Positions 19,925 through 37,403 of a DNA stretch of 64,000 nt are shown piece by piece. Source of the DNA: an uncultured Pseudomonadota bacterium. Lineage in GTDB: Bacteria > Pseudomonadota > Alphaproteobacteria > JACZXZ01. A program made the position numbers and the translations under genes. The stretch is from the NCBI GenBank assembly GCA_963749075.1, contig CAVVLJ010000021.1, positions 544,001 to 608,000 of the forward strand, written 5' to 3'. The stretch's first letter is position 1. Each line of letters begins with the position of its first letter. Below the pieces are notes generated by a model. It was not told the origin of the DNA, ran no database searches, and saw only the letters and a list, made by a program, of their open reading frames with translations.

Positions 19925-20644
19925 TTAGCATCCCAGCCGGTCCGCGAGGGCCTCGAAGTCCGCGGCCACGAAGTCCCAGGCTTGCGAGGGCTCGAGGTCC
20001 GGCTTGCCGGCGGGGCCGTGCTCCTTGGGCCGCGGCACGAAGGCGGTGCGCAGACCTTGGGCCGCCGCCGCCTTGAGGTCGCCGTTGTGCGCCGCGACCA
20101 TCGCGCATTCCGCTGGCTTGAGACGCAGGAACTCGACGGATTTGCGGTAGGCCTCGGGGCAGGGCTTGTAGTGCCGTGCGAGCTCGGCGCCGAGCACCAT
20201 GTCCCACGGCAGGCGGCCGTATTTGGCGAGGTTGACCATGAGCGCCACATTGCCGTTCGAGCAGGTGGCGATGATGTATTTGCGCTTGAGCCGCGCAAGA
20301 CCGGGAACGGCGTCCGGCCAGGGGTCGAGGCGGTGCCAGGAGCGGTTGAAACGGTCGAGCGCTGGCTCGGGGATGCCGCCGAGATGGCGCTCGGCGAGCA
20401 GGCGGTCGAGGCTCGCCCGATGGAGATCGTCGAGCGGCTGCCAGGCGATGGCACCCTTGCGCACCTTCTCGAGGGTCGGCTGGTAGAGCCCGCGCCAGGC
20501 GTCGGCGAAGGCGGCCCAATCGATGCCGGCGATGCCGTTCTCGCGCCCGAAGGCCTCGCCCTCGCGGATGATGCTGGTGCGCCAATCCACCACCGTGCCG
20601 AACACGTCGAAGAGGAGCGCCTTAAGGGCGGGCGGGCCAGCCAT
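19925..20644 (-). CDS. Haloacid dehalogenase type II
   Basis: LFDVFGTVVDW, CSNGN, YKP and MVAAHNGDL motifs. Confidence 0.92.
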   Translation of the reverse strand: MAGPPALKALLFDVFGTVVDWRTSIIREGEAFGRENGIAGIDWAAFADAWRGLYQPTLEKVRKGAIAWQPLDDLHRASLDRLLAERHLGGIPEPALDRFNRSWHRLDPWPDAVPGLARLKRKYIIATCSNGNVALMVNLAKYGRLPWDMVLGAELARHYKPCPEAYRKSVEFLRLKPAECAMVAAHNGDLKAAAAQGLRTAFVPRPKEHGPAGKPDLEPSQAWDFVAADFEALADRLGC

Positions 20645-20845
20645 GGGAATCTCCGCGTGTGGATGCGGGTACACGGCACGAAAATCCGACAACTCATTCC
20701 GTGCGCCAATCGTTGCCGCCAATATATGGCCGATAGCGAAATATCGACAACAGTGGAGGTGATCGCCGGACGTCGTCGTTGCGGCGATTTCTGGATCGGC
20801 GCATAGTGGCAAAGGTCGTCGCTTCCCGAGATGGGCCGCCCAGTC

Positions 20846-21070
20846 ATGAAACAGTTCACGGTCCGCGCGCATTTCGATCCCGAGACGAAAGTCTGGTGGG
20901 GATCGAACGAGGAGTTGCCGCTGACCACGGAAGCTCCCACGCTCGATCAGCTCTTCGCCCGCGCAGTCGAGATTGCGCCCGAGATCGCCGTCATGAACGG
21001 CCTGGCGGAGCACGGCGAGCAGGTCACTATTCAGATCACGGCAGATCGGGTGGCGACCGTCGACGGATAA
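20846..21070 (+). CDS. DUF1902/HicB-like antitoxin
   Basis: FTVRAHFDPETKVWW…LTTEAPTLDQL; TAATG-coupled to the HicA gene. Confidence 0.75.
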   Translation: MKQFTVRAHFDPETKVWWGSNEELPLTTEAPTLDQLFARAVEIAPEIAVMNGLAEHGEQVTIQITADRVATVDG

Positions 21071-23805: not shown

Positions 23806-24529
23806 GTGCGCCGTGACAAGGCGGCGCTTTCCAGTGGGTGCAAGGCCCACCCGGCAAGCGCTCCAGCCGGAAGCAATCGGAGCAGTCATGGAGGCAACGA
23901 AATGGCTGAAGCCTTCGGATAGCGGGTCACGAATTGGTGACAGCGCGAGTGTGCAGGCCGCAACGCGAGTGAACGCCGAGCAAGCCTCGAAAAGGACGAT
24001 GTGCAGGCCGACCCGACGACCCTTTCGGGGAAGGCTGATACGCCTGGGTGAATGAGCGAAACCTACGGCCAGGCGCTGCACCGGGGTAGTGGCGGCAGCA
24101 TGTACACAAGGAAAGCGTACGCAACACGGGAAGCTCCAAGGCGTGGTCAGGGATGACCAACCGGACGCCCGCGAGGGACAGGCCGGGCGCCGTGGGGTGG
24201 CGGAGAGGTTCGTAGTACCGCTGAAGCCGGGTAACGCCGGTGGAGGGAAGGGGCCTCAGTTCAAGACAGACGCAATACGCGGTGAGGGACCTGGAGATTG
24301 GGCAACCTATCAACTCCGAAGAGTGTTCAGAAACTGCAGATGGTGTTGCACGCGAACTGTGAAGGCGTGAGGTCTTGTCCGAGAGCCGGATGCGGGAGAT
24401 CCGCACGTCCGGTTCGATGAGCGGGGTGTGGAAACGGAGCCAGGGTCGAACCAGTGAGGCACCGCCAGACGAAAGGGGCGGGAACAGATATGTTCGGCCT
24501 ACAGCCACCGCGCCACACCTCGACTCTAC
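23806..24529 (+). mobile_element. Group II intron lacking its RT ORF (IIB, class E/F-like)
   Basis: 5' GTGCG at 23806; domain V GAGAGCCGGATGCGGGAGATCCGCACGTCCGGTTC at 24381-24415; long domain VI ending CTCGACTCTAC; EBS1-like ACCC loop (24019-24022) complementary to exon end GGGT; only an RT stub at 24298-24370. Confidence 0.92.
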
Positions 24530-29813: not shown

Positions 29814-30854
29814 GTGAAGACCATGCCAACGGACGGTACGGTGCGCTTCGGCGTCATCGGCCTCGATCACCCGCACATCTACCAGCAGTGCGAGGCGCTC
29901 GTGCGCGGCGGCGCCGAGTTCGCCCTCTTTCAGTCCGACGAGCCGGCGCTCGCCCCGCCCTTCGCGGCCCGCTTCCCCATGGCGCGCCAGGTGAGCGATG
30001 CCCGCGCGATCCTCGAGGCGCCGGACATCGCCCTCGTGGCGAGTGCCGCGGTGCCGGGCAAGCGCGCCGGGATCGGCATCGCCGCGATGCGGCACGGCAA
30101 GGACTTCCTCTCCGACAAGCCCGCCTTCACCACCCTCGAGGCGCTCGCCGAGGCGCGCCGGGTCCAGGCCGAGACCGGGCGCATCTTCGCCGTGCTCTTC
30201 GGCGAGCGCTTCGAGAGTGCCGCCACCGTGCGGGCGCTCGAGCTGGCCCGCGCCGGCGCCATCGGCCGCGTCGTGCAGACCATCGGCCTCGGCCCCCACC
30301 GGCTCAACGCGCCGGCCCGGCCGCCGTGGTTCTTCCGCCGCGCGCTCAACGGCGGCATCCTCAACGACATCGCCTCGCACCAGATCGACCAGTTCCTCGT
30401 CTTCACCGGCTCGACGAACGCCACCATCGCCCTCGCCCGCACCGCCAACCGCGCGCATCCGCAATTCCCCGAGTTCGACGATTTCGGCGAGCTCCTCATC
30501 GACGGCCGGGCGGGGACGAGCGGCTACGTGCGGGTCGACTGGTTCACGCCGGACGGTCTCTCGACCTGGGGCGACGGACGGCTGACCGTGCTCGGGACCG
30601 AGGGCTTCATCGAGGTGAGGAAATACTGCGACCTCGCCGGCCGACCCGGCGCCGATCATCTTTTCCTCGTCGACGGGCGGGAGACCCGCTACATCGACTG
30701 CGCGCGCGTGGCGCTGCCCTTCGGGCCGGCCTTGGTGCGCGACGTGCGCGAGCGCAGCGAGACCGCGGTGCCCCAGGCCCATACCTTCCTCGTCTCCGAG
30801 CTCGCCGTGAAGGCAGAGCTCGCGGCCGCGCGGCTCGAGCCGCTCGGAGCATAG
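29814..30854 (+). CDS. Gfo/Idh/MocA oxidoreductase
   Basis: GVIGLDHPHIY, SDKP and GGILNDIASHQIDQF motifs. Confidence 0.9.
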   Translation: MKTMPTDGTVRFGVIGLDHPHIYQQCEALVRGGAEFALFQSDEPALAPPFAARFPMARQVSDARAILEAPDIALVASAAVPGKRAGIGIAAMRHGKDFLSDKPAFTTLEALAEARRVQAETGRIFAVLFGERFESAATVRALELARAGAIGRVVQTIGLGPHRLNAPARPPWFFRRALNGGILNDIASHQIDQFLVFTGSTNATIALARTANRAHPQFPEFDDFGELLIDGRAGTSGYVRVDWFTPDGLSTWGDGRLTVLGTEGFIEVRKYCDLAGRPGADHLFLVDGRETRYIDCARVALPFGPALVRDVRERSETAVPQAHTFLVSELAVKAELAAARLEPLGA

Positions 30855-30860
30855 CCGGCC

Positions 30861-31943
30861 ATGCTTCCGCTCGGCGTCGCCGTCATCGGCATGGGCATCG
30901 GGGGCCGCCACGTCGAAGCCTTCAAGGCGCTGCCGCGGCAATTCACGATTGCCGCCCTCTGCGACCTCGATGCGGCGCGCGCGCGCCAGGTGGCCGAAGC
31001 GAACGGCGTCGCCCGCGTCACGACCGACGTGGAGACGCTCTTCGACGATCCGGCGATCGCGGTGATCGACATCTGCACGCCGCCCGCCAGCCATCGCGGG
31101 CTCATCGAGCGCGCGCTCGCCGCGGGTAAGCTGGTGATCTGCGAGAAGCCGCTCGTCGGCTCGCTCGCCGAGATCGACGAGCTCATGCGCTTCGAGGCGG
31201 CGCACGGCGCGCGCATCCTGCCGGTCTTCCAGTACCGCTACGGCCAGGAGCTGCAGAAGCTCAAGCATCTCGTCGAGCTCGGCATCGCGCGGCGCCACTA
31301 CCTCACGACGGTGGAGCTCGCCTGGAGGCGGGGGCCCGACTATTACGCGACGCCCTGGCGCGGCAAGTGGCGGAGCGAGCTCGGCGGCGTGCTCGTGACG
31401 CAGGCGATCCACTTCCTCAACGTCCTCGCCTACATCCTCGGCCCGGTGCGGCGCGTCTTCGCCTCGACCGCGACCCGCGTCAACGCGATCGAGGTAGAGG
31501 ATTGCGCCGCCGCCGTGCTCGAGTTCGCGGATGGCTCGCTTGCCACGCTCGCCGCGACCTTGGGCTCGGCGCACGAGACGACGCGCCTGCGCTTCTGCTT
31601 CGACGGGCTCTCGGCGGAAAGCGGCGCCGATCCCTATAACCCGGGGACCGCACCGTGGCGCTTCGTGGCGGCGCCGGAGCTGGCGCCCCGCATGGGTGCG
31701 TGCCTTGCGGATTTCACACCCGCAGCCGACGGCTTCGCCGGCCTCTTCGCGCGCTTTGCCACGGCGCTCGAGACGGGTGCGCCGTGGCCGCTCGGCTTGA
31801 GCGATGCGCGCCGCGCCATCGAGCTCATCACGGCGCTCTATCTCTCCGCCGAGAGCGGCCGTGCGGTGCCCCTGCCCTTGCCGCCCGGCTCTGCGAAATA
31901 CGCCGGCTGGACGCCTTCCTATGCGCGCAGCACCGGCGGTTAG
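30861..31943 (+). CDS. Gfo/Idh/MocA oxidoreductase
   Basis: VIGMGIG, CEKPL and GGVLVTQAIH motifs. Confidence 0.9.
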   Translation: MLPLGVAVIGMGIGGRHVEAFKALPRQFTIAALCDLDAARARQVAEANGVARVTTDVETLFDDPAIAVIDICTPPASHRGLIERALAAGKLVICEKPLVGSLAEIDELMRFEAAHGARILPVFQYRYGQELQKLKHLVELGIARRHYLTTVELAWRRGPDYYATPWRGKWRSELGGVLVTQAIHFLNVLAYILGPVRRVFASTATRVNAIEVEDCAAAVLEFADGSLATLAATLGSAHETTRLRFCFDGLSAESGADPYNPGTAPWRFVAAPELAPRMGACLADFTPAADGFAGLFARFATALETGAPWPLGLSDARRAIELITALYLSAESGRAVPLPLPPGSAKYAGWTPSYARSTGG

Positions 31944-31947
31944 CGCA

Positions 31948-31987
31948 TAAACGAAAGGCCGCGGGGTGCTGAGGCACCTCCGCGGCC
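31948..31987 (-). terminator. Rho-independent terminator for a minus-strand transcript (may act bidirectionally)
   Basis: Minus strand reads GGCCGCGGAGGUGC-loop-GCACCCCGCGGCC followed by UUUCGUUU. Confidence 0.7.
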
Positions 31988-32563
31988 CATCGGCGGGCGA
32001 AGCCGCCTGAAATGGGTGAGGCGTCAGGAGCGTAAGCGAGAACCCACGCAAGTGTCCGGGCGGGACACCCCTGACGCCTCTGGAGCCGAAGCCCCATGGC
32101 GCAGGAGAGCGGCCAGGCTTCCGGCTGTCCCGCTCCGCAGACGCGACCCCGTGAGGGGACGCCCCCTTTGGAGCGGGGAGCCGTATCCCCCTCGCGGAGG
32201 ATCGCCGGCAAAGAGGCTCACCCGTCGGCCGCGTCCGCTCCTCCCGTCGCGTCCCTCCTCCCTTGCGGGAGAATTTTCGCGCCTGGGACCGCGATTCCCC
32301 GTAAGGTCTCGCGGCCCCCCGTGACGGCCCCGGCAGCCCGAAGGCTTACCGACGCCGATCTGGGAAAAGAGCGGCCAACCGGGAGTTCGACCTCCCGCCC
32401 GGCGGCGCGGTGTCCCGAAGAACTCCCCGCCACCGAGGCCGGGCGGTGCCGCCCCGAAGGGCCGCATCGCCCCGAAGCCCTCGTCCTCTAGCCCGCCGGC
32501 CGAAACCCCAAGGGGCAACGGTCAGTTCCGCTTGGGACGATCCGCTTCGACACTCTCTCGTGC
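31950..32563 (-). ncRNA. Candidate large structured ncRNA, copy A
   Basis: No credible ORF. Many UUCG/GNRA-capped hairpins on the minus strand, a 3' three-way junction shared with copy B, promoter TTGATC-N16-TACGAT (32598-32571) and a downstream terminator. Confidence 0.7.
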
Positions 32564-32570
32564 CGCATAA

Positions 32571-32690
32571 ATCGTACTTCACCAAGATGGAAGATCAATA
32601 AGAAAAGCGCGGCGACTTGAAAATATCTGTGCGCAGATTTGTCAATTCCGCACAATGGCTCCACAAGTTCTCCACAGTCTTATCCACAAA
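32571..32690 (-). promoter_or_regulatory. AT-rich promoter region with tandem DnaA boxes
   Basis: TTCTCCACA at 32668-32676 and TTATCCACA at 32680-32688; TTGACA on the minus strand at 32640-32645. Confidence 0.65.
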
Positions 32691-32774
32691 CAGTATTCGC
32701 TTGCGGCGGACGCGGCATTGCCATGGCCGGTTCGAGCCATTGCACGAGCTGCCGCGGAGCGCCGCCTGGCGGCC

Positions 32775-34238
32775 TCATGGCTCGGGCAATCCGGCCTTGC
32801 GCAGCCCCTCGATCATATGCTCCCGGGCGGCCGCATCGGAGTATTGCTCGAGACGCCATCGCGTCGCCCTGACGCTGCCGTTCGGCAGCATGAGCATCTC
32901 GGCGAGCGCGCCTTTCGCCTCCTCGCCGCGGCCGAGTTGCGCATAGCTCGCCGCCAAGAGATGCGAGCTATGGCCATCGGGGCGGATGCGGTGCGCTTCC
33001 AGCGCGACCTCGAGCGCGCCCTCGTAGCGCCCGAGGCTATAGAGGGCCGCTGCCTTGTGGCAGAGCATGAAGAAGGCCTGCGGGTCCCGCGGGCTGAGGC
33101 GCTGCCAAACCTCGACCGCGTCGATCGCTGCCGCGTGCTGGCCGGCATGGGTCAGCGCGGCACCGAGGGCGACGTAGCCCAGAGCGAAATTCGCGTTCAA
33201 CTCGATCGCCCGGCGCGCCGAAGCGATCGCGCTGACGGCGTCGCCGGCCTCGTCGCGAATGCGCGACAGCATGTAATGGGCAGCTGCGTTCTCGTCATCG
33301 AGCGCAATCGCCCGCTCTGCGGCCGCTTCCGCTTCCTCCCTGATCGAGGCGAAGTCCCGCGAGCCGTAGAGGCATTGCATGTTGAGCGCGCGGACCACCC
33401 CGATATGAGCTTCGGCGAGATTGGCATCGAGTGCGATCGCCGTCTGGAACAGCCGGTAGGCGGCGAGCGCCTCCGCCTCGGCCGCCTTTCCCTTGTAGGT
33501 GAAGCTCGAATTGCGCGCGATGACGAAAAACGAGCGCCACTTGGAGAGCGCCGTGATGATGTCCTCGGTGATGCCGTCGACGAAGTATTCCTGCTCCGGG
33601 TCGCCGCTCATGTTGTTGAACGGCAGCACGGCGATCGAGGGCCGGTCGGGCAGCGGCGGCGATGGCGCAAGCTGCGGCGGCGCCGCGGGAGCCCTCCGCC
33701 CGCCGAGCAGGATGCGGTGGGCGTGAACCGGCCTTGCGATGTTCTTGACCTGTTGCTGGCCCATGTCCTCGAAGACGAAGCCGAGTTTGTCGCGCACCTG
33801 GTCGCGCACGACGCGGCTCACGCAGATGCCGCCGGGCTCCGCCAGGGCTTCGAGCCGCGCCGCGACATTGACGCCGTCGCCGAAGATGTCGCCCTTGTCG
33901 ATGATGACGTCGCCGAGGTTGATGCCGATGCGGAACTCGATGCGCCGCCCGGCCGGCACCGGGGCATTGCGCTCGGCCATTGCCGTCTGCACCTCGACGG
34001 CGCAGCGCACCGCATCGACGACGCTGGCAAACTCGACGAGCAGCCCGTCGCCGGTGGTCTTGACGATGCGGCCGCGGTTCTCCGCGATCCTGGGGTCGGC
34101 CAATTCGTGGCGCACCGCCTGCAACGCCGCAAGCGTGCCCTCCTCGTCCTCGCCCATCAGCCGCGAATAGCCAGCGACATCGGCGGCGAGGACCGCTGCC
34201 AGCCGCCGCTCGACGCGCTCCCGCTCCCCGCTGCTCAT
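32775..34238 (-). CDS. Class III adenylate/guanylate cyclase-TolB_N-TPR protein (internally shortened)
   Basis: AADVAGYSRLM, KTTGDG, GDGVNVAARLE and PSIAVLPF motifs; TPR repeats. Confidence 0.9.
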   Translation of the reverse strand: MSSGERERVERRLAAVLAADVAGYSRLMGEDEEGTLAALQAVRHELADPRIAENRGRIVKTTGDGLLVEFASVVDAVRCAVEVQTAMAERNAPVPAGRRIEFRIGINLGDVIIDKGDIFGDGVNVAARLEALAEPGGICVSRVVRDQVRDKLGFVFEDMGQQQVKNIARPVHAHRILLGGRRAPAAPPQLAPSPPLPDRPSIAVLPFNNMSGDPEQEYFVDGITEDIITALSKWRSFFVIARNSSFTYKGKAAEAEALAAYRLFQTAIALDANLAEAHIGVVRALNMQCLYGSRDFASIREEAEAAAERAIALDDENAAAHYMLSRIRDEAGDAVSAIASARRAIELNANFALGYVALGAALTHAGQHAAAIDAVEVWQRLSPRDPQAFFMLCHKAAALYSLGRYEGALEVALEAHRIRPDGHSSHLLAASYAQLGRGEEAKGALAEMLMLPNGSVRATRWRLEQYSDAAAREHMIEGLRKAGLPEP

Positions 34239-34414
34239 CGCCCTGCATCCAAAAGCTCGGCGAAGCCTGTCCGGACACTCGCAAGTGGAGCCCGACCGCC
34301 CGGCGCCAGCATAGCCGGGGGCGCTCGCGTTATGGAAGCGATCCGATCGAGGCCGCGCGGGCGATCGGCTCATCCGACCTGCGGCGAGGCCGCCATGCGC
34401 TTGGTGCCGCGCGC

Positions 34415-34999
34415 TCAGCCGCGCCGGCGCAGCACCGCCACGAGATAGCGGCACCGTCCGCGTCCCGGGTTGACGAAGCGGCAGTCCGCGGGCGGGCCGA
34501 GGCGCAGGCAGTCGCCCGGGCCGAGATCATAGGCGGTCTCTCCCTGGACGAAGCGCAGGCGCCCCGCGAGCGCCACGATCTGCTGGTCCTCGATGAAGGC
34601 GAAGGCGGTGCTGGGGTAGGCGATCTCGGCACCCGCCGGCAACTCGCCCCAGACGAGCTCGAGCGGCGCCTCGGAGCTGCCGGGCGGCGTCAACGCGCGG
34701 CGGCGGAAGCCGGTCGCGGGGTCGCGCCAGACCTCTTGCCGGGCGGCGCGCAGAAGCCGCCCGCCCGCACCCTCGGCGCGGGCGAGGAGCTGCGAGAGGC
34801 TGAGCCCGAAGGCGCCCGAGAGACGGCCCAAGAGGGCCGCCGTCGGGCTGCTCGCGCCGCGCTCGACCTTGCTGATCATGGCGCGCGAGACGCCCGAGCG
34901 CCGCGCCAGCTCGTCCAGGCTCCAGCCCCGCGACGCGCGCTCGCTCTTCAGCCGGGCGGCCAGCCGGGCGTCGATCGAGTCCTCTATCATAGGAGACAT
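34415..34999 (-). CDS. XRE-cupin transcriptional regulator
   Basis: SLDELARRSGVSRAMISKVERG; C-terminal cupin LGPGDCL. Confidence 0.9.
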   Translation of the reverse strand: MSPMIEDSIDARLAARLKSERASRGWSLDELARRSGVSRAMISKVERGASSPTAALLGRLSGAFGLSLSQLLARAEGAGGRLLRAARQEVWRDPATGFRRRALTPPGSSEAPLELVWGELPAGAEIAYPSTAFAFIEDQQIVALAGRLRFVQGETAYDLGPGDCLRLGPPADCRFVNPGRGRCRYLVAVLRRRG

Positions 35000-35061
35000 T
35001 GTTATATTATAGTAGAAAATGCCAGGGACGGCCAAGGCCTTTCTCGGAGAGGTGCCGGGCG

Positions 35062-35568
35062 ATGACGGACGACATCCGCGATGCCACGCGCGACGACCTG
35101 CCGCGCATCCTCGCCATCACCAACGAGGCGATCGCCAACACGACGGCGCTTTGGACGCTCACGCCGACGGCGCTCGCGGCGCGCGCCGAGTGGTACGAGG
35201 AGCGCCGCCGCCTGGGCTTTCCCGTCCTCGTGGCGAGCATCGGGGGCGAGGTGCTCGGCTTCGCCTCGTTCGGCAGCTTCCGGCCGTGGGAGGCCTATGA
35301 GCGGACGGTCGAGCATTCGCTCTACATCGATGCCGCGGCGCGCGGGCGCGGGCTCGGCTCCGCACTCCTCGCAGCCCTCGTGCGGCGCGCCGAGGCGGGC
35401 GGCATGCACGCCATGGTCGGCGGCATCGAGGCGGGCAACGCCGCCTCGCTCCGCCTTCATGCCCGGCTCGGCTTCCGCGAGGCCGGCCGTCTCCGCGAGG
35501 TCGGGCGCAAGTTCGGCCGCTGGCTCGATCTCGTGTTCATGGAGCTCCTGCTCGGCGGCGGGCGCTGA
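35062..35568 (+). CDS. GNAT N-acetyltransferase (MnaT/PAT-like)
   Basis: TVEHSLYI…RGRGLG…NAASLRLH…VGRKFGRWLD. Confidence 0.9.
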   Translation: MTDDIRDATRDDLPRILAITNEAIANTTALWTLTPTALAARAEWYEERRRLGFPVLVASIGGEVLGFASFGSFRPWEAYERTVEHSLYIDAAARGRGLGSALLAALVRRAEAGGMHAMVGGIEAGNAASLRLHARLGFREAGRLREVGRKFGRWLDLVFMELLLGGGR

Positions 35569-35596
35569 AGGGCGCCGCCTCGGGGAGAGCGCAAGC

Positions 35597-36040
35597 GTGC
35601 TCGGCACCCTGGCAACGCTTCTCCTCCTCGCCGCCGCCGGCTGCGGGCTCGTCGCGCAGAACCTGCTGATGAGCCGCATCGCCGGCGGCGGGGCGATCTT
35701 GCCTGCGCTCTTGGCGAACTCCGCCGTGGGCTTGGCCCTCATCGTGGCGGCGGGATCGGGGTGGTACGGCAGCGCCTTCATAGCCGACACGGCGGCGCGC
35801 TTTCGCAGCTGGTGGATTCTTCCGGGCGTGCTCGGAACCCTCTTCGTCTTCGCCAGCGTCGCCGGCTACCGCCAGCTCGGCGCCGCGGCCACCTCGGCTG
35901 TGCTCATCGCCGTGCAACTCGCGGCGGCGCTGATGGCCGATGCGCTCGGCCTTGGCCCTGCCTTGCGGCCGGTCGGCCTCACGCAATGGCTCGGCGCCGC
36001 GCTTCTCGTGCTCGGCGCGACGCTTGTGCTGCGCAAATGA
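35597..36040 (+). CDS. DMT family transporter (YdcZ-like)
   Basis: GLVAQN, WWILPGVLG and LGAA…QL…D motifs. Confidence 0.8.
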   Translation: MLGTLATLLLLAAAGCGLVAQNLLMSRIAGGGAILPALLANSAVGLALIVAAGSGWYGSAFIADTAARFRSWWILPGVLGTLFVFASVAGYRQLGAAATSAVLIAVQLAAALMADALGLGPALRPVGLTQWLGAALLVLGATLVLRK

Positions 36041-36084
36041 AGGCGGCGTCAGGAGTGTCCCGAGGCCCCGAATACTTAGCAGAA

Positions 36085-36640
36085 ATGAAGGCGGCGTCGG
36101 GAGCGTAAGTTGGACTTACGCGCGTGTCCGGGCGGGACACTCCCGACGCCGCCGGGGCCTGGGCGGACCCCCGATGCCGGAGCGGCATGCGACCGCACCG
36201 CCACCGGCGCGCGCGTGCCTCAGGGAGAAACGCGCGCCACGCCGGTGCTTGAGGGCCAAGTCCGCCCTGGGCGGGACGGAGCCCTGGCCCGCGGCACGTC
36301 GCGGTTCGCGAAACCATGCCGGGGAACGGCCGCCGCTCGCGCGCCGACCCTTCCCAAGCTCAGGGAAGCCGGCTCTCCCGGGCGAGGAGAGGGCCCCCCT
36401 TGGCCGGCCTTGCGGGGCGCCTTGCGGCGTCCCTCCGTCCGGCCCCTGGCCCGCGTCCCGACGATCCGGCCTCCCCTGTCGCGACGGGCCGATCTGCGCG
36501 GACCGGCCTGCGACCGAGGACACCCCGCCCTCTTGCGAAGGCGGCGCCGCGCGTGCTTTGGGATCGCGGCCCGCGCCGGCCGGCGCCCGAAGGCGGCACG
36601 TCCGATGCGACCCGCATGTCCCATTGCGATGCACTCCAGC
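36085..36640 (-). ncRNA. Candidate large structured ncRNA, copy B
   Basis: Shares GCGTAAG…ACGC..GTGTCCGGGCGGGACAC and a covarying closing helix with copy A. GCAA/UUCG hairpins and 5'-3' long-range pairing on the minus strand. Confidence 0.68.
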
Positions 36641-36644
36641 ACCG

Positions 36645-36772
36645 AGAAAGAATAGTGACGGCCGTTCCTGCGAGCAGCAATGGAAAAATCAAGTAATTGT
36701 CAAATTTCTTGTGAATAAACAATGGCCTTCCTCACAATCTCCCAACAGATTGTCCACAGAGTTGTACACAGA
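36645..36772 (-). promoter_or_regulatory. AT-rich promoter region with tandem DnaA-like boxes
   Basis: TTGTCCACA at 36750-36758 and TTGTACACA at 36762-36770; TTGACA on the minus strand at 36698-36703. Confidence 0.6.
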
Positions 36773-37004
36773 TTCTCTGCACGCCGCGCTCCCTTCAGGT
36801 GCGCAACCGCCGAAGCCCTGCGGTTCCCCGGGAAAAATCCCCCCATCGCCGCCGCGGCCGCGCGTTTTTGCTGCGTTGCCGCAGATTGACTTAGGCGCCC
36901 GCGAGGCATAGAAAACCTACCGATACCCTGCCGGAACCCGGGCAGCTCACCGCCCGCGGCCGCTCCAGCGCTCGGCACGCCGAACCCGCCGAAGAAGGCG
37001 CCTC

Positions 37005-37403
37005 ATGACTCCCCGCAACAGGCCGCTCTCGCCCCATCTCACGATCTATCGCCCGCAGCTCACCTCGGTGCTCTCGATCATGCACCGGATGACCGGAGTG
37101 GCGCTCTCCTTCGGCACGTTCCTCCTCGTGTGGTGGATCGTGGGTCTGGCGCGCGGCCCCGCTTCCTTCGCGACCGTCCAGCATTTCCTCGCCTCGATCA
37201 TCGGCAGGCTCATGCTCTTCGGCTGGAGTTGGGCGCTCTTCTACCATCTCACGAACGGCCTCCGCCATCTCGCCTGGGACGCCGGCTGGGGTTTCGAGCT
37301 CAAGGACGTCTATCGCAGCGGCTGGTTCGTATTCGCGACCTCGGTGGCGCTCACGCTCATCGCCTGGATCGCCGGCTACGCCGTGATGGGGGCGCAGCCA
37401 TGA
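37005..37403 (+). CDS. sdhC: Succinate dehydrogenase cytochrome b556 subunit
   Basis: [18 protein letters not shown] and HLTNGLRHL motifs. Confidence 0.97.

Follow-up and report, generated by a model that had tools for sequence, protein, structure and literature searches.

Large bacterial RNAs that are highly structured and of unclear function are uncommon, and new biochemistry has time and again come from studying them. Here we analyse two RNAs, A and B, and above all the three-way junction that closes the 3' end of each, encoded on the minus strand of a 64,000-nucleotide stretch of DNA (the window; positions 544,001 to 608,000 of contig CAVVLJ010000021.1, assembly GCA_963749075.1) from an uncultured alphaproteobacterium. 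Like the orphan RNAs OLE, ROOL, GOLLD and raiA and the IMES RNAs, the latter abundant in metatranscriptomes, these RNAs run to hundreds of nucleotides (nt) with many covarying helices and stable tetraloops, appear to have a promoter and a terminator of their own, and are very abundant in environmental RNA. They differ from them in showing no sequence or structure match, in their restriction to some alphaproteobacterial families, in a body of 151-954 nt of which only the ends are conserved, in promoters carrying arrays of DnaA-box-like sequences, and in a fixed position beside sdhCDAB, the succinate dehydrogenase operon. CsrB/RsmZ and 6S are protein-sequestering RNAs built of repeated hairpins; A and B are likewise abundant, with modular hairpin arrays of variable number, but are without a GGA-type loop motif (the loops are mostly UUCG and GCAA) and match no Rfam model. 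The junction itself shares with intrinsic terminators a G+C-rich closing helix, a U-rich tract directly after it, a place at the end of the transcription unit and, where it is tandem, a fail-safe-like arrangement, but unlike them it is a branched three-way hairpin of ~63 nt whose closing-stem sequence is kept across families. The Escherichia coli site datA, as described in PMC10950094, is a DnaA-box cluster that adjoins a stable-RNA operon and is controlled by read-through. As at datA/DARS sites in that account, the locus studied here has a DnaA-box cluster outside oriC beside a strongly transcribed stable-RNA gene, where a terminator and read-through matter; it departs from them in that its boxes lie mainly upstream, at activator-like promoter positions, that an IHF site was not identified, and that the neighbouring RNA is no tRNA.

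The junction forms the 3'-terminal domain of noncoding RNAs that are abundant, highly structured and members of a family not described before; the window holds two paralogues. From its anatomy we consider it probable (roughly 0.6) that the junction serves as a branched intrinsic terminator and also as a stable cap or handle of the 3' end. The elements concerned are:

32018-32080, minus strand: 3' three-way junction of RNA A (sequence; fold z = -5.6; covariation)
36090-36153, minus strand: 3' three-way junction of RNA B (sequence; fold z = -8.4; 91.2 bits with model R1, below)
32009-32564, minus strand: RNA A, ~556 nt (consensus fold; metatranscriptome contigs; no Rfam match)
36081-36643, minus strand: RNA B, ~563 nt, paralogous to A and built on the same general plan (consensus fold; 480-nt RNA-library contig)

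Read on the minus strand, helix P1 of copy A is formed by GAGGCGUCAGG (32080-32070) and CCUGACGCCUC (32028-32018). It encloses P2, GUGUCC-CGCCC-GGACAC (32068-32052, the loop CGCCC at 32062-32058), and P3, in which GCGUGGG (32049-32043) pairs with CUUACGC (32036-32030), and it is followed by the tail ACCCAUUUC. In copy B, P1 is GCGGCGUCGGG / CCCGACGCCGC, P2 is the same 17 nt, P3 is GCGUAAG / CUUACGC and the tail is CUUCAUUUC. The two copies thus differ by two compensatory changes in P1 (A-U to C-G and A-U to G-C) and by G-U to A-U changes in P3. The minimum-free-energy fold of either minus-strand copy is the three-way junction (-41.8 kcal/mol for A, -48.5 for B; the z-scores listed above are relative to 200 shuffles). 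An earlier sequence-only reading had described both junctions on this strand, with two compensatory changes in P1, an identical P2 and a G-U to A-U change in P3; all of this can be read directly from the sequence and agrees with the folds and with covariation in all three helices. The strand is supported by the G-U pairs, by the scores of models on the same full copies (74-97 bits forward vs 22-30 bits reverse) and by the orientation of the promoters. ARAGORN returned no tRNA or tmRNA gene in 31500-37300, and a tRNA-like 3' structure was dropped on that ground and for want of a conserved CCA in the tails.

Covariation was followed from close relatives outwards. A DNA search with copy A matched every one of the 10 remaining genomes of its family and, outside that family, a 38-nt piece in a single other one. 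The junction alignment comprises 21 of the 22 copies found (one, cut short in genome G005, was dropped), the 21 coming from 12 genomes; 97.0% of its cells are paired, 7 of 24 pairs have changes on both sides, and its covariation score was reached by none of 500 shuffles, while slid controls were 36-54% paired. The P2 hairpin is unchanged across the order in these 21 copies. Model R1, built from this alignment, detects the junction in 11/11 genomes of the order, which consists of a single family, and in 11 members of a class-wide sample of 151 genomes. For model R2 we took 35 forward-strand matches with E up to 1e-4 and left out the other 13 of 48, all of them weaker and on the strand opposite a full copy; compensatory changes then appear in 15 of the 24 pairs, and R2 finds the junction in 14 of the 151 class genomes, with matches in 13 families besides that of the window genome. 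In a phylum-wide sample of 151 the window's own genome was the sole match (0/150 others).

Metagenomes extended this set. A strict P1 pattern occurs in at least 120 stretches of metagenome contigs, and in viral contigs its scan gave 0 matches; in 58 of 80 listed metagenome loci R2 confirmed 61 matches (56 distinct sequences). A looser P1 pattern was unspecific, with R1 confirming 2 among 80 listed loci, both in named metagenome-assembled genomes, one labelled Alphaproteobacteria and the other Rhodospirillaceae. Across the 56 distinct copies every pair of P2 (six) and of P3 (seven) covaries and 96.5% of cells are paired, P1 being invariable here since the search pattern fixed it; both this alignment and that of 35 copies were fitted to a model, which favours pairing. 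The P2 loop is CGCCC in 11 of the 56 copies, UUCG in 6 and some other sequence in the remainder. Outside the clade the P2 loop and the P3 arm vary freely, and one member is without a branch. P1, by comparison, is kept as GGCGUCAGG / CCUGACGCC in the 14 of 151 class genomes, from 13 further families; class-wide it is P1, and not P2, that is the most conserved part. The invariance of the CGCCC loop, noted in the sequence-only reading, and of P2 as a whole is limited to a clade. The same reading had called the junction the functional core of the RNA. Since it is kept while the bodies range over 151-954 nt, being, besides the promoter and a short 5' motif, the sole part shared by all members, the label of a core element is reasonable; a general P2 invariance and the pseudoknot (weighed below) are not supported.

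In relatives the junction is also multiplied: one to four further tandem units, partly degenerate, follow RNA B and precede the box array of A. In genome G008 (locus L011, 2200-2770, minus strand) four or five tandem degenerate junction units of ~118 nt with the tail UCCCUUUUCGG stand after RNA B. The window retains the remnant of such a tandem extra junction:

36034-36061, minus strand: partial second copy, the 3' half of the B junction (repeat family D3; extra copies in relatives)

The stop codon of the neighbouring DMT transporter gene overlaps this remnant.

Both junctions close G+C-rich gaps of ~600 nt without a credible gene, and the two gaps align end to end with a mean column identity of 73%, promoter regions included. 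For RNA A the 5' end was set by promoter alignment and the 3' end taken as the U-rich tail after P1. RNAalifold was applied to 10 of 11 A-type orthologues (the 295-nt truncated copy of genome G002 was left out) and gave a consensus fold of 181 pairs, 67 of them compensatory. In this predicted fold the 5' end pairs with columns 466-479 and closes a large multi-branch body, after which come a UUCG hairpin, the junction and the tail. Seven orthologues of RNA B give the same layout, with 166 pairs of which 44 are compensatory. The hairpins that directly precede the junctions are:

32082-32095, minus strand: hairpin GGGGC-UUCG-GCUCC before the A junction (consensus folds; present in other families too)
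~36172-36155, minus strand: equivalent hairpin of B, GGGGUC-CGCCCA-GGCCCC (consensus fold)

A loop motif CCGCCC(A/G)GG occurs in three hairpins of RNA B (36155-36172, ~36268-36278 and 36123-36139, minus strand), the P2 loop included. Across families the body cannot be aligned, its length running from 151 to 954 nt: the short members, of ~150-215 nt, include one that amounts to little more than a 5' hairpin and the junction, and another member carries a row of twelve UUCG hairpins. Among the predicted hairpin loops of 16 members, 44 of 208 are UUCG and 18 are GCAA. What is constant across the family is the promoter with its arrays of TGTGGATAA-like boxes, P1, the U-rich tail and a short 5' motif.

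Neither RNA was matched when Rfam (4227 families) was run on the whole window, the only two hits being to group II introns elsewhere. On 31500-37200, with E up to 10, the best hit scored 24.2 bits against a gathering score of 42.5 (E = 0.34), and on 17 related loci the single hit was to CcsR1, at 32.6 bits against 65.3 and on the opposite strand. We rejected this last candidate, in locus L011, as below threshold and explained by UCCUCC/GGAGGA stems. No Rfam 15 family, OLE, ROOL, GOLLD, HEARO, raiA, 6S, tmRNA, RNase P and CsrB included, reached its gathering threshold. In the literature, including the discovery papers PMC11109978, PMC8632094 and PMC5737381, we found no description of this RNA, though supplementary motif lists might contain it. 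We regard it as a new RNA family, for which Rfam 15 has no entry. Its unusual traits are the DnaA-box-like promoter array, a body that varies between ends that do not, and a probable branched terminator whose stem is conserved in sequence.

Expression was read from four small metatranscriptome runs on soil, all from one study and selected for the presence of copy A (each contains 23-42% of its sampled words), with contigs placed on 31500-37300 at a likeness of at least 90%. No evidence was drawn from runs with only a small share of the copy A words or from stretches of the window that RNA contigs left uncovered. RNA A is covered by contigs over 32020-32551 with summed word depths from thousands to more than 10^5, and RNA B over 36150-36629 (one contig of 480 nt) with depths of ~10^2-10^4. 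For the cyclase, HTH, DMT and oxidoreductase genes, which lie between the two RNAs or next to them, cover is sparse or none, at depths of 0-5. These silent flanks argue against carry-over of DNA. High-depth contigs reach 32020, and none runs on past this position at high depth.

Upstream of each RNA, alignments of promoter regions across families suggest by eye a common layout. Going downstream, three or four direct DnaA-box-like 9-mers with 9+2 spacing are followed by one inverted box, TTATNCACA(A/G)GAAA, then by a T-rich stretch with TTATTGCA or TTGATC (-35-like), a spacer of 16-19 nt and a -10-like ~gATAnt; the conserved RNA start, GG(C/U)ACG(C)GAnAG(C/U)GUCGG, stands ~7 nt further on, which would put the start of A near 32564 and that of B near 36643. 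We take the DnaA-box consensus to be TTATCCACA, of which TGTGGATAA is a perfect match. In the window the elements are:

32646-32688, minus strand: four direct DnaA-box-like 9-mers upstream of A, 11-12 nt from start to start (sequence; kept in orthologues and other families)
32688-32680, 32676-32668, 32665-32657 and 32654-32646, minus strand: the individual A boxes TGTGGATAA, TGTGGAGAA, TGTGGAGCC and TGTGCGGAA (sequence)
32636-32628, minus strand: inverted box of A, CTGCGCACA (alignment by eye)
32598-32593 and 32576-32571, minus strand: putative RNA A promoter, -35-like TTGATC and -10-like TACGAT (alignment by eye)
36770-36762, 36758-36750, 36747-36739 and 36736-36728, minus strand: direct boxes of B, TGTGTACAA, TGTGGACAA, TGTTGGGAG and TGTGAGGAA (sequence)
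36718-36710, minus strand: inverted box of B, TTATTCACA (sequence)
36680-36675 and 36655-36650, minus strand: putative RNA B promoter, -35-like TTGCTG and -10-like CTATTC

The array of A thus has one perfect and three degenerate boxes besides the inverted one, and that of B is similar. By density of relaxed boxes, both promoters rank within the top six clusters of the genome, and of the metagenomic members with at least 1 kb upstream, 42 of 47 have TGTGGATAA with at most one mismatch, in RNA orientation, 255-1079 nt before the junction. These phased arrays of TTATCCACA-like matches are DnaA-box clusters, to which DnaA presumably binds. A simple sigma-70 scan did not call the putative RNA A promoter, and no clear boxes were found in the dnaA promoter or upstream of hemE, where they had been sought to calibrate the local DnaA box. 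That such boxes are a general promoter element of stable RNAs was rejected, both rRNA operon promoters being without arrays of this kind. A further box-like sequence follows the RNA in part of the family: by eye, in 8 of 16 other-family loci the U-rich tail is continued by a TTTATCA(C/G)A-like sequence and a conserved stretch GCAACAACAA..TTTTG (L047, L050-L053, L055, L079 and L122 have TTTATCA(C/G)A...GATTCC...GCAACAACAA..TTTTG within 50-60 nt past the junction). This stretch may belong to the RNA tail or be a site in the DNA.

The surroundings of the RNAs are conserved as well. The genes of the locus are:

29814-30854 and 30861-31943, plus strand: two GFO/IDH/MocA oxidoreductases (Pfam)
32775-34454, minus strand: adenylate cyclase with TPR repeats (Pfam)
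34415-35035, minus strand: HTH-cupin regulator (Pfam)
35081-36040, plus strand: DMT transporter (Pfam)
37005-37403, plus strand: sdhC, first gene of sdhCDAB and divergent from RNA B (Pfam; tblastn), followed by sdhD and then sdhA (Pfam)

Synteny was examined by tblastn with the window SdhC and with the MaoC-type mesaconyl-CoA hydratase (mch) of locus L122 in 26 loci, with flanks of only ~1.5 kb, so that misses are not evidence of absence. In 17 of these loci sdhC lies divergently upstream of the RNA and in 13 mch lies convergently downstream, and the usual order is mch, RNA, box array, sdhCDAB. In genus relatives B is directly upstream of A, and in the window genome ~3.3 kb with the DMT, HTH-cupin and cyclase genes lie in between; this segment (32775-36040) is an insertion or rearrangement that splits two RNAs adjacent in four genus relatives.

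Several features of the 3' end argue that the junction terminates transcription. It is the last structured element of the RNA, and in both window copies and in the 16 other-family loci shown an 11-bp G+C-rich P1 is followed directly by a U-rich tail, as in an intrinsic terminator; the mean U fraction over the 11 nt past P1 is 0.53 in the 56 distinct metagenomic copies, and at locus L048 UUUUUUU stands directly past P1. No gene lies downstream of the RNA on the same strand, where the neighbour is convergent. This terminator anatomy of P1 and tail, and the membership of the RNA in a widespread, highly expressed family with a DnaA-box-like promoter, go beyond what had been read from the sequence before. 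Since tandem junction units stand where strongly transcribed B runs toward the array of A, they would fit a role as fail-safe terminators or insulators. A number of points weigh against this view of the junction. Branched intrinsic terminators are unusual, these being normally simple hairpins with a short loop, and the hairpin studied here branches at a three-way junction into two arms that covary; a simple terminator scan did not call it. The tails of the window copies are moderately U-rich, with 4 U in the first 9-10 nt. A second candidate lies beyond junction A:

31948-31987, minus strand: canonical hairpin followed by UUUCGUUUAUG, a possible back-up terminator 25-60 nt past the junction (sequence)

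Its U-tract is found on the minus strand only and the simple scan did not call this hairpin either, but its presence after A would mean that there is read-through or that the real end lies there. Nor does termination alone explain the conservation of the P1 sequence beyond pairing, and a partner protein of the junction was not identified. The expression evidence, finally, consists of contigs rather than reads, from which the strand and exact RNA ends are not readable, and all four runs are of one study.

On the probable reading of the junction as a branched terminator and handle, the RNAs would work as follows. Each would be transcribed on the minus strand from its own promoter, downstream of the DnaA-box-like array, with promoter and array in the interval that separates the RNA from the divergently transcribed sdhCDAB operon. 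Pairing of the 5' end with bases immediately ahead of the junction would close a variable multi-hairpin body rich in UUCG and GNRA tetraloops, after which the small hairpin and then the three-way junction would form. P1, closed over its two short arms, would together with the U-rich tract act as a branched intrinsic terminator. The junction would stay on the RNA as a very stable 3' cap that shields it from 3' exonucleases, a protection that might partly explain the high steady-state level of the RNA. It may also be a handle by which a protein recognises the RNA or a tertiary contact is made, a role suggested by the P1 sequence kept across families and the P2 hairpin kept within the clade. Further still, and quite doubtful in our view, the RNAs might be a new class of very abundant modular hairpin arrays (150-950 nt) whose transcription is set by a DnaA oligomer on the phased box array beside sdhCDAB, with the junction as the handle of a dedicated partner and as an insulator governing read-through into DnaA boxes nearby; an RNA-based signal of growth or dormancy would in that case be coupled at this locus to the state of the replication initiator, possibly with DnaA feedback of the datA/DARS kind.

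Among the alternatives, it is possible, if on balance unlikely, that the junction is mainly a platform for protein binding or assembly of a ribonucleoprotein, and as such the true functional core, with termination incidental or elsewhere. Across families it is the sequence of P1 that is conserved, when its pairing would be enough for a terminator, P2 is invariant throughout the order, the members of ~150-215 nt hold little beyond a 5' hairpin and the junction, junction units are multiplied in tandem after B, and RNA B carries the CCGCCC(A/G)GG loop motif three times. Against such a platform, no candidate protein gene is linked to the locus, whose neighbours are mch and sdhCDAB; the P2 loop and P3 arm are free to vary outside the clade, down to the member that is without a branch; and the U-rich tail is retained where the arms change. 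The long-range pseudoknot between the CGCCC loop and an upstream GGGCGGG, which the sequence-only reading had proposed, is very improbable. The complementary sequences are indeed present in both window copies (plus-strand CCCGCCC at 32394 and 36524), but they are not conserved in orthologues: of the 10 A orthologues, all of which have the invariant loop, only 2 show GGGCG at the aligned site, and B orthologues have GGGCGGGG, AAGCGGGG or AGCGCGG there. The site moreover lies inside a predicted helix with compensatory changes (170-178 with 360-368), GGGCG occurs one to six times per RNA body anyway, and the best aligned upstream 5-mer is complementary to the loop in 6 of 10 orthologues, none being so in 7 or more.

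Selection might instead act on the DNA, as an origin or as a DnaA-control site of the datA/DARS kind, with GGCGTCAGG...CCTGACGCC as an inverted repeat recognised in the DNA and transcription modulating it; we hold this to be improbable. The upstream arrays, with 9+2 spacing, contain perfect and near-perfect TTATCCACA-type boxes, both promoters belong to the six densest box clusters noted above, TTTATCACAA-type box-like sequences stand directly past the tail in 8 of 16 other-family loci (by eye), and E. coli datA (PMC10950094) offers the precedent of a site just downstream of a stable-RNA operon and controlled by read-through. The cumulative GC skew of contig C21 has a weak minimum at 580-600 kb, close to the locus at 576-581 kb, but the skew of this genome is too weak to decide an origin. 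On the other side, G-U pairs and strand-asymmetric covariation suit RNA and not DNA, the transcripts are extremely abundant, and the locus is present in two copies. Origins in alphaproteobacteria are marked by a switch in strand bias with hemE nearby. On C21 gene orientation switches at ~100-150 kb, near hemE (150.6 kb), gidA (172.8 kb) and parB (176 kb) and not at 580 kb, dnaA lies at 20.5 kb, and in five other genomes dnaA and hemE are on other contigs than the RNA or more than 290 kb away. A replication origin at the locus was accordingly set aside, and because the origin markers and the coding-strand switch lie elsewhere, the boxes are better read as probably promoter-associated or as a datA-type DnaA-control site. 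We give hardly any credence to a repeat of REP type or tied to a mobile element, or to a leader regulating a downstream gene in cis. Two copies 4 kb apart with a partial third might suggest a repeat, but a search of the 5,488,800-base genome assembly for the P2 17-mer, at no more than two mismatches, gave just two occurrences (0 for a reversed control pattern), and instead of many dispersed copies without a long structured partner region, the REP-type pattern named in the sequence-only reading as what would speak against it, there are two copies, each ending a structured RNA of ~560 nt. The locus is syntenic across families between the core genes mch and sdhC, the scan of viral contigs was empty, and there is no same-strand gene downstream that a leader could serve.

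The family is conserved in at least 14 alphaproteobacterial families, is common in soil, sediment and water metagenomes, and in soil RNA libraries reaches depths three to five orders of magnitude above those of neighbouring genes. A phased DnaA-box-like promoter array is unusual for an RNA gene and offers a testable link between the replication initiator and an abundant RNA, and the probable branched terminator with its conserved stem is a compact handle for pull-down, structure work and covariance-model searches.

Outside the window, two perfect DnaA boxes, inverted and 34 bp apart, precede another candidate RNA (C21:105269-105699, minus strand), a G+C-rich and hairpin-rich sequence of ~370 nt that ends in a clean terminator, GCGCCCCUUCGGGGGCGC followed by UUUUU. 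It has no Rfam match, was found only in the window genome and in one of 10 family relatives (a genus relative), and lies in a region with transposase genes; it was considered as a possible member of the same regulon. Nearby, a run of ~90 nt that is nearly all A and T (15% G+C; C21:104101-104190) directly follows a transposase-like frame and could be an artefact of assembly or mark where an insertion sequence ends. The dnaA gene of the window genome (C21:20390-20873, minus strand) has a split match to PF00308, with profile positions 1-113 at 20535-20873 in a 438-aa frame and 111-161 at 20390-20542 in one of 291 aa; in five other genomes the match is in one piece (1-161), and the split could be a frameshift or a sequencing error. 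Within the window, the two Rfam hits mentioned above are group II intron domains at 23832-24529 on the plus strand, RF02003 with 99.5 bits (23832-23968) and RF00029 with 44.4 bits (24381-24529).

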